From positions 8,924-72,923 of the IMG/VR virus record IMGVR_UViG_3300012001_000008: DNA of 64,000 bases; one strand, written 5' to 3'. Positions 1,502 through 47,057 of this stretch are shown piece by piece. The notes under the pieces were generated by a model, which saw only the letters and a list, made by a program, of their open reading frames with translations, was not told the origin of the DNA and did not search any database. The stretch comes from a virus. The number at the start of each line of letters is the position of its first letter. The first letter of the stretch is position 1. The position numbers and the translations under genes are program-made.

Positions 1502-1534
1502 TCATAGTATAAGTAAATTAAGAAAGGCTTATAA

Positions 1535-1702
1535 ATGAACGAACCAGTACATATCGACGAAAACGATAACGTAGTTATAAACATAAATGCGATTTCACCT
1601 TCATCGAAGATATATACGCACTGTAAAGAGTGTGGATGTGAATTGTTCGGTGGGGAACGCCAAGGAGAGGATGCAAATGGATACTGCGACACCTGTAATT
1701 AG
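1535..1702 (+). CDS. 55-aa zinc-finger protein
   Basis: Manual translation with CKEC...CDTC; RBS AAGAAAGG at 1520. Confidence 0.65.
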   Translation: MNEPVHIDENDNVVININAISPSSKIYTHCKECGCELFGGERQGEDANGYCDTCN

Positions 1703-36794: not shown

Positions 36795-36924
36795 TTAATA
36801 GTCCTTCCGTAGAAATGACTTGCCAAATCTCACCCCAGTTAAATGCAACGATTGCCACAAGGACGATAGCGAGCGCTATACAGATTCCTAATGCGAGAGT
36901 TGTGCCGTTATAGTCTTCGTTCAT
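36787..36924 (-). CDS. 45-aa single-TM protein
   Basis: Manual translation MNEDYNGTTLALGICIALAIVLVAIVAFNW...; AAGAAAGGCT RBS. Confidence 0.6.
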   Translation of the reverse strand: MNEDYNGTTLALGICIALAIVLVAIVAFNWGEIWQVISTEGLLSE

Positions 36925-36959
36925 TTGTTTAAAGCCTTTCTTACTGTCTTTATATTTTA

Positions 36960-36988
36960 ATTATGCTCTTATTCGGCGAAAAACACAA
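36960..36988 (-). promoter_or_regulatory. Early-type promoter TTGTGT-N17-CATAAT
   Basis: Exact motif and spacing. Confidence 0.8.
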
Positions 36989-36999
36989 GCCCTTTTATC

Positions 37000-37029
37000 A
37001 AAGAAAATAGACGCCATTATAGCGCCTAT
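37000..37029 (-). terminator. Intrinsic terminator of the large ncRNA
   Basis: Minus strand ATAGGCGCT-loop-GGCGTCTAT followed by TTTCTTT. Confidence 0.7.
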
Positions 37030-37560
37030 CTTTCACATCCCCTTTGAACTCAATCCCACATTAAGCGCACAATTCTGGTAAGTAGCTCGTTTGTCGTGCA
37101 GGGGCTACTTTAGGATTGAGGTGGCGACCCTTCGCTGTTTCGCGTATCGTGACTCATTTGATACTTACCAGAACTATGTGTTTAATTATTAAATGCACAC
37201 ACGGGGGGACGTTTTCACCAATGACCGTTTTAGATGGACAGTCCACGGTTTCAGAAGGACTTATACAACGGAGCTACCGTCTTGTAACCTCATATCCGCC
37301 GTGTGGCGTAAGTAGCTACCTCCCCCTCTGTGTGCATTTATTCAATAAGTGACAATCCAGCAAGCACGTCCGTAGACACATGTATCCTACGGCGTACTCG
37401 TGTGTACATCACAGGGGGTATTCTTCGCGTTGCAGGGTTAGTGGTTCCGCTCCCCCATCTGGGCTATGACTATTTTCCGATTGCCGTCCCTCACTCTTGC
37501 AAGAGCTTCTCGGTTCGACCTGCTTACCAGATTATCACTTATTTGTCTGTTAATGTTCTA
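37003..37560 (-). ncRNA. Large structured non-coding RNA of unknown family (~555 nt)
   Basis: Own promoter and terminator, no minus-strand ORF of 60 aa or more, three long-range helices (37061-84/37162-85, 37190-209/37321-40, 37344-66/37521-43). Confidence 0.75.
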
Positions 37561-37566
37561 TAGTTA

Positions 37567-37595
37567 ATTATGCTCTTTTATGTGCGAAAACACAA
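37567..37595 (-). promoter_or_regulatory. Early-type promoter driving the large ncRNA
   Basis: TTGTGT-N17-CATAAT. Confidence 0.8.
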
Positions 37596-38101: not shown

Positions 38102-38296
38102 TTAGTAGCCTTTCTTAATCATAAATGTTACCACAAAGATAAACCCCTTATAATTCCGCTTTGCAGGGTATGTGCCTTCCATCGGCAAACTTGTAAGCTT
38201 ATACAAGCCAAGTATGAATGTGCGCCTATCATCAAGGAACTCAGGTCTCTTGTATAGCCTACATTGTACCTGCCACTTGTTAGGTGTGTATTTCAT
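38102..38296 (-). CDS. Hypothetical protein
   Basis: 64-aa ORF, TGATG coupling. Confidence 0.5.
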   Translation of the reverse strand: MKYTPNKWQVQCRLYKRPEFLDDRRTFILGLYKLTSLPMEGTYPAKRNYKGFIFVVTFMIKKGY

Positions 38297-42893: not shown

Positions 42894-42926
42894 TTTTCTA
42901 ACCTTTCTTATTTGCTTTCTGACCGA

Positions 42927-43971: not shown

Positions 43972-44242
43972 TCCAAGCCCTCTTGAATCGTGCTTGATAT
44001 GCAGAACGCCCCATACCAGTTTGTGCCACGCATTGTGCTTCAAGTTCGGCTTCGTAGTCGGCAGAGTTCATAAACTCCTCTTGCACCTTACGAGCCACTT
44101 GCTTAACAACAATATGTTGTGGGCGATTAACTGGCATGTGACGTACTATTTCACTCCTGTATCCCATTGAGACAGCTTCCGCTTTAGTCTTGATGACTAT
44201 GTCTTCGATGGTTGGGTATTCGACGGTTATTGTAGTTTTCAT
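43964..44242 (-). CDS. Hypothetical protein
   Basis: First gene after promoter; AAGAAAGGCT RBS. Confidence 0.65.
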   Translation of the reverse strand: MKTTITVEYPTIEDIVIKTKAEAVSMGYRSEIVRHMPVNRPQHIVVKQVARKVQEEFMNSADYEAELEAQCVAQTGMGRSAYQARFKRAWNE

Positions 44243-44277
44243 TGTTATAAGCCTTTCTTATTTGCCTTATAACTAGA

Positions 44278-44306
44278 ATTATGCGCCTTTTTCGCCGAAA
44301 ACACAA
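44278..44306 (-). promoter_or_regulatory. Early-type promoter
   Basis: TTGTGT-N17-CATAAT. Confidence 0.8.
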
Positions 44307-44581: not shown

Positions 44582-44851
44582 TTACACTTGCGACACACCG
44601 TAACTTTGTTCAGATACAGTCCTACCGCCGTCTTTAGTAATCTCAGTGACAACTTTGCGCTTAATTGCGCCACAATTAGGGCATTTTATCTTACCGCTAT
44701 TGACTATAAGTGCAACTGGGACATAGACTACAATAAATAAAATTGGAGTAATAACAAAGATTGCGAATAGTATCCAGAGAATCGTGTTATTATAATTAGC
44801 CTGCTCTTGGGCAAGGACTAATGATTGGTTATACGCTTGTAATGTATCCAT
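44582..44851 (-). CDS. Membrane protein with CxxC; probably leaderless
   Basis: TM helix, KCPNCG; ATG 7 nt after -10. Confidence 0.6.
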   Translation of the reverse strand: MDTLQAYNQSLVLAQEQANYNNTILWILFAIFVITPILFIVVYVPVALIVNSGKIKCPNCGAIKRKVVTEITKDGGRTVSEQSYGVSQV

Positions 44852-44987: not shown

Positions 44988-45194
44988 TCATTCAACAATG
45001 ATAGTAGTCTTTTCACTTGGCTTTTCCTTTATCGCTTTAACAATTTCTATTGCTATCTGTAACCCATTATGAGAACCAAATCGAAACCATTTAACACTTC
45101 TCTCATCGGCGACATCTATTTCAAGCTTCTTAACATCGACGAGCTTGAGCATTTCCACCAATTCTTGTTTTTGTTTTTTAGTTAGATTCACCAT
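44988..45194 (-). CDS. Hypothetical protein
   Basis: 68 aa; AGGAG RBS; promoter TTGCGT-N17-TATACT at 45209-45237. Confidence 0.6.
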   Translation of the reverse strand: MVNLTKKQKQELVEMLKLVDVKKLEIDVADERSVKWFRFGSHNGLQIAIEIVKAIKEKPSEKTTIIVE

Positions 45195-45244
45195 AATCTC
45201 CTACTCTCAGTATAGCGATAATACCCCAAAAACGCAAGCATAAT

Positions 45245-45272
45245 AAAAGACCACCCGCTAAGATGGTCTTTT
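45245..45272 (-). terminator. Intrinsic terminator (possibly bidirectional)
   Basis: AAAAGACCA-loop-TGGTCTTTT inverted repeat. Confidence 0.7.
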
Positions 45273-45553
45273 GCTTTCGGCAAAACAATTGTCATGCCTC
45301 TGAGCGCGGTTGTGGGTTGGGCTTCGTCCTTCAACGATTTTCCAACATTCGGACGCCTCGACTAGTCTAGAAGTAAATCTTTTGTAGTTTTGGTAATGCG
45401 TCCGTTCAACTCCATAGGAATCTTGTCACTCTGTCAAGAGGTTTTCGATTCATTGCCACCGAGTCCTTGGTTACTCCTCGATGTACGCTACACTTTCGTG
45501 CCTATTAGGTGCTTTAGCCGTCGAGATACTTATTAAGCTACCACAACGCTCAT
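45246..45553 (-). ncRNA. Structured non-coding RNA of unknown family (~305 nt)
   Basis: Promoter TTGAAT-N17-TATTAT upstream, terminator downstream, no ORF; end helix 45301-15/45541-52, internal helices, cacGAAAgtg tetraloop. Confidence 0.65.
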
Positions 45554-45617
45554 ATATACATAATAGCATAACCTGTTTTATTATTCAAGCATTTTATGTA
45601 GTGGAATAGTCTACAAG

Positions 45618-45713
45618 CAAAGAGACACCAATTAAGGTGTCTCCCAAGAAAGGCTATTAGTAACCACAGCATCCGCTCACAACTAAACGATACGGTGCTT
45701 ACTGCTACTAACA
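45618..45713 (-). ncRNA. Candidate ~95-nt sRNA with exposed anti-RBS seed AGCCUUUCUU
   Basis: Early promoter 45720-48, 5' hairpin, unpaired seed 45646-55, terminator hairpin 45621-44. Confidence 0.6.
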
Positions 45714-45719
45714 TTTCTA

Positions 45720-45748
45720 ATTATGCTCTTTTATTTGCTAAAACACAA
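45720..45748 (-). promoter_or_regulatory. Early-type promoter driving the sRNA
   Basis: TTGTGT-N17-CATAAT. Confidence 0.8.
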
Positions 45749-46259
45749 CCCCATTGTGCCTTTTAATTACCTCCTCTATATCTGCTTGACTGACCTTATT
45801 GCCAGAGTGAGCGAGTTGTTTAAGATTATCTATTGCTTCATCGCCATATTGGGCGCGTAGCTTAATCTCGTAGACCTTTAGATTTCCACCCTTTACGACA
45901 TTACATTCGTTGCACTGTGGGTGACAGTTTATATCATTCCAGCGTGTGTTCAGGAATCGGCGGTTTATGAAGTGACCATTCTGTAGCTCTTCGAACTTAC
46001 GGTTGCAGGTATAACAATACTCGCTTAAGCCTCTAATATAGGCAGAATGGTACTTATCGGCGTATCCTATGAGCTGACTACGTTCAGAATTGCCCTTGTA
46101 ACGTAACGTAAGCCTCTGTGGGGCGTTTTGGGACGAAAGTGGGGGAATTGTGCGTTTTCGGTTATAAGTCTCTTGGAAGGGCTTAATTTCGCGCTTTTCA
46201 CATTTATTCTTTGAATGCCAAATCGACCCGCACCATTTACACGGCTTGTGGGTCAACAT
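45738..46259 (-). CDS. ninG: NinG/Rap-like recombination endonuclease
   Basis: CYTC, QNGHFINR, TRW..NCHPQCNECN..GGN, L...YG. Confidence 0.75.
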   Translation of the reverse strand: MLTHKPCKWCGSIWHSKNKCEKREIKPFQETYNRKRTIPPLSSQNAPQRLTLRYKGNSERSQLIGYADKYHSAYIRGLSEYCYTCNRKFEELQNGHFINRRFLNTRWNDINCHPQCNECNVVKGGNLKVYEIKLRAQYGDEAIDNLKQLAHSGNKVSQADIEEVIKRHNGVVF

Positions 46260-46751: not shown

Positions 46752-46995
46752 TCTTACGCATATTTACTTCTGTGTTATGCTTTGCTGTCTTTAGGTCATA
46801 TAAGATATTATGGATAATTTGTCGTTCCTCGGAAGAGTTGTTATCGGTTAACTCCTGCATAAGCCCAGCACGAACTTTCTGTATCTCTTCTTGCGCGGCA
46901 TACTTGCCTTCGAGGTCGGTGAACTTAATGTTCATCAGGCGTTCAATCTCGTATTCCTCACGCTTTGTTTCATCGAATTGTTTTAAGTCTGTCAT
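46732..46995 (-). CDS. Hypothetical coiled-coil protein
   Basis: First gene after promoter; AAGAAAGGCT RBS. Confidence 0.65.
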   Translation of the reverse strand: MTDLKQFDETKREEYEIERLMNIKFTDLEGKYAAQEEIQKVRAGLMQELTDNNSSEERQIIHNILYDLKTAKHNTEVNMRKIAGFRG

Positions 46996-47028
46996 TGTGT
47001 AAGCCTTTCTTAATGAATTACAACTTGA

Positions 47029-47057
47029 ATTATGCTCTCAATTATGGCAAAACACAA
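47029..47057 (-). promoter_or_regulatory. Early-type promoter
   Basis: TTGTGT-N17-CATAAT. Confidence 0.8.

Follow-up and report, generated by a model that had tools for sequence, protein, structure and literature searches.

Why would a virus carry, inside a short unit that resembles a gene for a small RNA (sRNA), the exact complement of a word that it repeatedly places in front of its own start codons? The question is raised by positions 45,618 to 45,748 of a 64,000-nucleotide stretch of viral DNA, called the window here, which comprises bases 8924-72923 of the 72,923-bp viral contig IMGVR_UViG_3300012001_000008 (G000 in the following; estimated contig completeness 56%). An earlier, sequence-only reading of the window had proposed that one trans-acting sRNA occludes a standardised ribosome-binding site (RBS) on several early mRNAs. 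Our analysis, likewise made at the sequence level, supports this proposal: we consider it fairly probable that the unit encodes a phage-encoded trans-acting base-pairing sRNA of ~100 nt, which would block ribosome binding on those early mRNAs that carry the complementary word, AAGAAAGGCT, termed the tag.

The unit lies on the minus strand and consists of a promoter, an imperfect 5′ hairpin, an unpaired segment with the sequence AGCCUUUCUU, termed the seed, and a terminator hairpin (Table 1); all that the sequence-only reading had stated about these elements holds. The promoter is a copy of the phage's repeated sigma-70-like promoter class, a cassette of the form gcTTGTGTTTT-N13-GCATAAT(T). With a strict pattern, 16 copies are found in the G000 contig and 22 in the related G001, a complete 99,006-bp genome with terminal repeats; a looser pattern finds 19 and 24 copies, respectively, as well as 24 in a further relative, G006. 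We place the start of the sRNA at ~45714-45712, because the same promoter elsewhere starts leaderless genes 6-7 nt past its -10 hexamer. A 113-nt stretch of the locus folds at -39.4 kcal/mol (z = -4.73), which none of 200 shuffles equalled, and in G000 the 10 bases of the seed have unpaired probabilities of 0.46-0.99; the seed is predicted to be unpaired in all four homologs of the unit described below. Judged from sequence, the unit appears to have its own promoter and intrinsic terminator, as an independent transcription unit would, and to expose an accessible, conserved seed complementary to RBS regions, as is expected of a trans-encoded base-pairing sRNA. No Rfam family matched anywhere in the window at the gathering threshold, a search of 45100-45800 at E ≤10 returned sub-threshold chance matches only (for example Ysr49, with 17 bits against a gathering score of 95), and ARAGORN found no tRNA or tmRNA.

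The word to which the seed is complementary is strongly enriched and tightly positioned. In the window, AAGAAAGGCT occurs six times, where 0.19 copies are expected on both strands, and none of 100 shuffles reached six; in the whole 72,923-bp contig it occurs eight times, compared with no copy of the same word read backwards. An ATG follows seven of these eight copies at a distance of 3-8 nt, and six of the seven stand behind a standard promoter (17-18 nt past the -10 hexamer in five cases, 37 nt in one); the eighth is the antisense copy in the open linker of the sRNA unit, 64 nt past its -10 hexamer. A count of the complement against position, which the sequence-only reading had suggested, thus places seven of eight copies at RBS positions and the remaining one in the sRNA. 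Its more specific claims are confirmed as well: five exact tags precede in-window start codons, at a spacing of 5-8 nt, and four of them are promoter-proximal, 17-18 nt past the -10 hexamer; a sixth site, at 42900, pairs with the seed through G-U; and T precedes all six in-window sites. Two further tagged, promoter-proximal genes lie just left of the window; there the base before the tag is A in one case and C in the other. The eight tagged G000 genes encode proteins of 45-163 aa, some of them hydrophobic, none of which gave a Pfam or PHROG match. Between window positions 1529 and 36933, the structural block, the tag is absent.

Table 1. Coordinates, within the window, of the elements of the candidate sRNA unit and of the tagged translation starts.
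Feature	Position	Strand	Basis
Promoter-hairpin-linker-terminator unit	45612-45748	minus	sequence
sRNA promoter: TTGTGT 45748-45743, 17-nt spacer, CATAAT 45725-45720	45720..45748	minus	conserved in 4 contigs
Predicted sRNA transcript, ~100 nt, both ends predicted	45612..45714	minus	promoter class, folds, covariance model
5′ hairpin, arms UUAGUAGC 45711-45704 and GGUUACUAA 45665-45657	45657..45711	minus	folds of 4 homologs
Seed, single-stranded AGCCUUUCUU, exact complement of the RBS tag	45646..45655	minus	fold, conservation
Terminator, 10-bp stem GGGAGACACC 45645-45636 / GGUGUCUCUU 45629-45620, loop UUAAUU	45620..45645	minus	fold, co-variation
Interrupted U-rich tail UGCUUGUAG	45611-45619	minus	sequence
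Tag AAGAAAGGCT, 55-aa gene; 18 nt past -10; ATG 5 nt downstream	1520..1529	plus	
Tag, 45-aa hydrophobic gene; 17 nt past -10; ATG 8 nt downstream	36933..36942	minus	
Tag, 85-aa gene; no promoter within 75 nt, hence operon-internal	38107..38116	minus	
Variant tag AAGAAAGGTT, 131-aa gene, GTG start; 17 nt past -10; one G-U with seed	42900..42909	minus	
Tag, 92-aa gene; orthologs in G001, G006 and L022 carry the same tag	44250..44259	minus	
Tag, 87-aa gene; 17 nt past -10; ATG 6 nt downstream	47002..47011	minus	

The same arrangement recurs in the relatives. G001 holds seven copies of the tag, namely five at RBS sites (four with ATG and one with TTG as start), one inside a gene and one in the sRNA, and in G006 all five copies lie at RBS sites. 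Among the promoters found with the looser pattern, 6 of 19 in G000, 5 of 24 in G001 and 5 of 24 in G006 carry the exact tag, or about a quarter, and a few more carry variants with one or two mismatches; in all three genomes the tagged genes are small orphans that lie outside the structural block. The tag is retained in orthologous genes across phages, with a variable leader between it and the -10 hexamer; because the leaders vary, one site is promoterless and one ortholog group has a 37-nt leader, the tag is not just a fragment of a duplicated cassette. In general form, the seed reads [A/G]GCCUUUCUU[A/G], open over 10-12 nt, and the tag (U)AAGAAAGGCU, which overlaps a weak AAGG RBS. In G006 (four of five sites) and L022 (its one site), a CU before the tag and an AG after the seed extend the complementarity to 12 contiguous pairs (CUAAGAAAGGCU with [A/G]GCCUUUCUUAG). 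The changes in the internal tag variants AAGAAAGGTT, AAGGAAGGCT, GAGAAAGGCT and AAGAAAGGTA are without exception transitions, each of which leaves a G-U pair with the seed, and changes of the last base (T to A) lose the terminal pair only; since the events are few and transitions are common anyway, the G-U-keeping variants lend weak support to the pairing.

Could the tag simply be the Shine-Dalgarno (SD) sequence of the host? In G000, G001 and G006 combined, most of the other genes (121) have GGAG or GAGG at SD distance, so that the tag marks a special subset and is not the host's general SD. Among the SDs, TAAGGAG (nine cases) is more frequent than AAAGGAG (three), which hints, with small numbers, that the 3′ tail of the host 16S rRNA does not match the tag in full. 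By this indirect evidence, drawn from the SDs of phage genes, it is unlikely that the host tail itself reads AGCCUUUCUU. On our own reading, the tag offers a canonical CCUCC anti-SD only its AAGG. The argument that the sequence-only reading drew from the conserved CT after AGG, as not expected from pairing with the anti-SD, is weakened, since CU(U) also tops a co-varying leader hairpin, described below.

Within its lineage, the unit is conserved in a manner that sets the seed apart from its surroundings. It is present in G000, G001, the metagenome contig L022 and G006, relatives at ~70-75% DNA identity, and has the same position in all four, after a NinG/Rap-like gene and before a 305-nt non-coding RNA. 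Anchor patterns taken from this downstream RNA find G001, L022 and G006, a search that is unbiased with respect to conservation of the seed. A covariance model built from the four homologs finds one strong copy per contig (E 3.8e-31 to 2.6e-20; 379,894 bases searched) and two weak matches (E 0.11 and 0.17), which we judge spurious. In a model-based alignment of the four sequences, 9 of the 10 seed columns are invariant, compared with a single one among the 40 columns of the 5′ hairpin interior; the immediate flanks of the seed have no invariant column (0/5), the terminator arms 6/10 and 7/10, and the terminator loop 1/6. The sole change in the seed is A to G at its first base in G006, which retains a G-U pair with the final U of the tag. 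Both stems co-vary, with two two-sided pair changes at the base of the 5′ hairpin (helix 1) and three in the terminator (helix 2); of 63 pair cells, 96.8% contain standard pairs, a share that drops to 39-57% once the partner columns are shifted by 1-3 positions, and helix 2 is paired in 100% of its cells across the homologs. Because the alignment is structure-fitted and holds four sequences only, these pairing statistics are supportive, not conclusive.

An obvious alternative is that the product is a small protein, translated from a 54-codon open reading frame (ORF) starting with the ATG at 45714. This ATG, 5 nt past the -10 hexamer of the sRNA promoter, is placed where leaderless genes of this promoter class start. 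Neither G001 nor G006, however, has it, and the alignment shows a 13-nt indel between G000 and G001. ORFs that cross the seed differ between homologs in their start offset and in their frame relative to the seed (2; 1; 0 and 2; 2), their peptides are unrelated, and G001 lacks any ORF in the frame used in the window. With no start, frame or peptide kept among the four homologs, the unit behaves as non-coding, and on sequence comparison we reject the small protein, to which we grant next to no probability. Altogether, the proposal of a trans-acting sRNA aimed at a standardised RBS has come through the three points on which it could have failed and which were tested, namely lack of seed conservation in relatives, a conserved product of the 54-codon ORF and a host 16S tail that reads like the seed.

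The leaders of the tagged genes add a second layer, and this display of the tag by a leader hairpin is a new feature of the present analysis. In most short tagged leaders, a stem joins the bases that follow AAGAAAGG (CUUAUA and variants) to a segment 3-6 nt upstream of the tag (UAUAAG and variants), which leaves AAGAAAG(G) in a loop of 11-15 nt and the start codon 0-6 nt past the stem. The two arms match site by site (UGUAA/UUACA, UAGUAA/UUACUA, UAAAG/CUUUA). Over 23 leaders, which are not independent because orthologs are included, the best helix formed with the leader's own arm has a mean length of 5.78 bp, compared with 4.98 bp for arms taken from other leaders, and none of 2000 permutations reached the observed value. 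The hairpins are weak (-0.1 to -7.5 kcal/mol) and are found at window positions 1503-1540, 36920-36960, 44240-44280 and 46995-47030, with equivalents in G001, G006, L022 and the contigs G007, G008 and L057. Recognition by the sRNA would therefore take place in a loop, a mode of contact known from many antisense RNAs.

With this in mind, we propose the following course of events. The sRNA and its targets would be transcribed from one promoter class; the sRNA would accumulate as a stable RNA and could then pair with tagged leaders as they appear, through their loop and the upper part of their stem. Such pairing would keep the 30S subunit off the RBS, so that translation of the tagged early transcripts, and probably also their stability, would fall. 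A defined group of small early proteins would in this way come under negative feedback that sets in with a delay. We infer the terms ‘early’, ‘shut-off’ and ‘timer’, the first because the promoter is sigma-70-like and fronts small genes outside the structural block.

Several observations weigh against this mechanism. No co-variation between seed and tags is visible among G000, G001, L022 and G006, because both are invariant in the relatives compared, and the one seed change, in G006, is not met by a matching change in the tags but only by G-U tolerance. The modelled leader hairpin offers another account of why the CU of the tag is conserved. Duplex energy does not single out the tags either. 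Predicted duplexes of the seed with exact tags reach -14.6 to -17.7 kcal/mol and, among the called translation-initiation regions, the tags rank near the top, though not exclusively. A scan of whole genomes was not discriminating: 190 sites in G000 reach -13.5 kcal/mol or lower, with the best tag at about rank 14, and in G006 the tags rank 3, 5, 6, 7 and 11 of 118. Energy is hence not used as evidence of specificity; the case is built on contiguous complementarity, on position and on conservation. Furthermore, a single sRNA gene would have to serve targets behind 6-8 promoters of its own class, and repression therefore needs an sRNA that is more stable than its targets. The U tract of the terminator is broken (UCUUUGCUUGU), which makes read-through into the next RNA possible. 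Finally, a U/C-rich stretch just before a terminator is also the site of chaperone-binding modules in sRNAs.

The last point leads to the explanation that the RNA is real and its open stretch serves another partner, be it host mRNAs, an RNA chaperone or the neighbouring 305-nt RNA, with the tag match being secondary or incidental. We regard this as unlikely. In its favour, the pyrimidine-rich stretch lies directly 5′ of the terminator, as is typical of chaperone-binding modules, targets among host mRNAs are possible, and with many alternative sites in the energy scan and no co-variation the seed is not tied to the tags. Yet chance is very unlikely to produce an exact match over 10-12 nt to the RBS word with the strongest enrichment in the genome (0.19 copies expected in the window), the match takes in the non-purine CU/AG end, and no Hfq or ProQ gene was found in three genomes. 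If the sRNA does pair with the tags, it might still act positively, as a nuclease shield, as a stabiliser or as a sponge titrated by the early mRNAs. The evidence for tag pairing speaks for this as much as for repression, and the tag sits in a 5′ hairpin, the kind of element that often governs mRNA stability; the duplex, however, covers the sole SD-like bases, AAGG, 3-9 nt before the start codon, which makes occlusion the simplest outcome and a positive action improbable in our view.

The interrupted U tract, together with the tandem order that unit and 305-nt RNA keep in all four contigs, could also be taken to mean that the unit is a leader or attenuator of the 305-nt RNA, the hairpin past the seed being a regulated terminator. 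This seems quite improbable to us, given that in each of the four contigs the 305-nt RNA is preceded by a conserved extended -10 promoter of its own and that the folds show no evident alternative antiterminator pairing. Lastly, the 10-mer might be a DNA site for a phage or host protein, in either orientation, which would render the RNA complementarity meaningless. In most leaders the word indeed lies at a fixed 13-19 nt from the -10 hexamer, where operators can lie. But all copies except one are in sense orientation just before start codons, one tagged site is promoterless and another lies 37 nt past the -10 hexamer, the flanking inverted repeats co-vary between sites, which fits an RNA better, and the antisense copy occupies the unpaired linker between two co-varying stems; we hence hold a DNA site to be very improbable.

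How does a repressing sRNA of this kind compare with known systems? The sequence-only reading knew of no described system of exactly this design, and our full-text literature search, supplementary files aside, returned no phage sRNA directed against a private RBS tag that the phage's early genes share; close analogues, however, exist. The closest mechanism described is that of the c4 RNA of P1/P7, a phage small RNA whose exposed segments pair around the RBS of its own mRNA and block translation (PMC12197685). The candidate sRNA resembles c4 in being a phage-encoded RNA with an exposed segment complementary to its own RBS region. The c4 RNA, however, is cut from the operon that also contains its single target (icd/ant) and acts in the immunity of a temperate phage, whereas the unit studied here forms a gene by itself, with a promoter and a terminator of its own, and faces 6-9 dispersed targets that share one tag. 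The Rfam C4 family (RF01695) was not found in the window at the gathering threshold, in 45100-45800 at E ≤10, or in any of the three genomes at E ≤1.

The closest target architecture described is the start-associated sequence (SAS) of Cluster K mycobacteriophages, which is a word longer than the SD that lies 3-7 bp before the starts of non-structural genes only, combines SD-like bases with conserved positions unable to pair with 16S rRNA, and occurs almost always in one orientation, with a single reverse copy in several genomes (PMC3203893). About half of the SAS copies have an adjacent inverted repeat, and its authors left open whether an RNA or a protein binds (PMC3203893). The tag is likewise a private start-associated word that is found in one orientation and at non-structural genes only. 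Compared with SAS, it differs in sequence (AAGAAAGGCT versus the 13-bp GGGATAGGAGCCC) and belongs to an unrelated lineage, and we therefore regard it as an analogue, not a member; moreover, no partner RNA has been described for SAS, whereas the reverse copy here lies in a conserved structured sRNA gene.

In T4, the translational repressor RegA and the endoribonuclease RegB are phage proteins that shut down the phage's own early mRNAs at ribosome-binding regions. The logic proposed here is similar, with a candidate RNA in place of the protein effectors. Homologs of RegA or RegB were not found in the three genomes, a weak negative as control genomes gave no match either. Bacterial sRNAs with a UCCC motif, such as RsaE, RNAIII and LhrC, pair with many SD regions through an exposed C/U-rich ‘anti-SD’ motif. 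Unlike these host-encoded RNAs and their generic SD targets, the seed has a non-SD AG which, by pairing with CU, restricts it to a private phage tag. The points that distinguish the system from the known ones are hence a private tag with multiple targets, the display of this tag in a loop, and the use of one promoter class for both the regulator and its targets.

The case appears clean: each genome has one predicted copy, the invariant seed is set between stems that co-vary, and the targets are well delimited. More tentatively, tag and sRNA may form a self-contained orthogonal translation channel, in which a private word, shown in a 5′ hairpin loop, labels the first cistron of selected early operons and a dedicated anti-tag RNA switches the set off on a timer. 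The SAS tags of Cluster K mycobacteriophages likewise have a single reverse copy, and such pairs could even be a widespread, undescribed class of phage riboregulators. If true, host take-over would be timed by RNA only. Temporal control of phage early genes is understood mainly via proteins, such as repressors, sigma and anti-sigma factors, and T4 RegA and RegB. A possible answer would also emerge for start-associated tags that lack a known partner, SAS among them, and the pair would provide compact, portable parts (a tag of 10-12 nt and an RNA of ~100 nt) for orthogonal translational control.

The phage itself stands apart from cultured ones. Since the window encodes a tape-measure protein, tail proteins, a portal protein and a large terminase, besides an RNA ligase and a tRNA nucleotidyltransferase, it derives from a tailed phage. 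Searches of the G000 DNA against a phage collection gave no match in either the near or the distant mode. Its terminase (TerL) matches Bacteroidota phages at 21-28% identity only, the portal protein had no match in a protein search against cultured phages, and the RNA ligase is 44-46% identical to those of many unrelated phages; G000 thus appears to have no close cultured relative. G001 was found through a protein of 253 aa encoded near the unit, which is 83% identical between the two phages, and L023 is identical to G001. A scan with the promoter pattern retrieved G006 (86 kb) and the fragments G007-G010. Other searches added little: an exact 25-nt seed-region pattern had no match in the viral contig collection, a promoter-plus-seed pattern gave six stretches there, one true homolog and five chance matches, the promoter pattern gave single chance matches only in cellular genome contigs, and an alignment search with the 163-aa target family returned no contigs beyond those already found. 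Searches with the NinG protein found 28 homologs at 47-77% identity on other assemblies, and its alignment search found G001, G006 and four distant loci (L210-L213), which are without promoter, tag and sRNA.

Turning to the surroundings of the unit, the upstream gene (45738-46259, minus strand) encodes a NinG/Rap-like junction endonuclease (Pfam PF05766, E = 1.1e-12); an assignment as HNH endonuclease was rejected, as the Pfam match is to NinG. In G000, G001 and L022, the end of this gene (GVVF, stop) doubles as the -35 region of the sRNA promoter. Directly past the sRNA lies the second non-coding unit, of ~305 nt (45245-45590, minus strand), which ends in a terminator at 45272-45245. The extended -10 promoter of this RNA reads TGnTAnnAT in all four contigs, and the RNA has no Rfam match. 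It is more conserved than the sRNA hairpin and has apparent compensatory changes (CUCGA...UCGAG versus CCUGA...UCGGG). Between the two units, just past the sRNA terminator, the word TTGTAGAC(A/T)ATTC (45596-45612, minus strand) is largely kept in the four contigs, with 10 of 20 tail columns invariant; it could form a mini-hairpin of 5 bp, in which the changes are uncompensated.

The promoter class also serves in other arrangements. In front of the gene at 44582-44851 (minus strand) and at several sites in G001 and G006, the ATG lies 6-7 nt past the -10 hexamer, and these promoter copies probably make leaderless mRNAs. Another copy, at ~37595 on the minus strand, is followed by a long stretch (37003-37595) without a convincing ORF on that strand. 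The same 18-base pattern, CTTGTGTTTT-N13-GCATAATT, with ATGAGCTGG 4 nt later, occurs at a locus conserved in many genomes of Candidatus Saccharibacteria (L084-L086, L099, L102 and ~15 more), where Rfam had no match; in so large a database this may be a coincidence, but it might also be a faint hint at the host. As to the leaders, the ortholog group with the 37-nt leader (contig position 7209-7292, left of the window, L001; ~1514 in G001, ~2079 in G006 and ~5191 in L057) has a conserved hairpin, CAGTGAACGACAAAAGAGCGTCAC, ahead of the tag. In G006, other leader words stand behind the same promoter class, AAGAGAGGGTA twice (74332 and 48279) and AAGGGTAAAAAATAAA twice (1399 and 69852), and these may be further private RBS tags.

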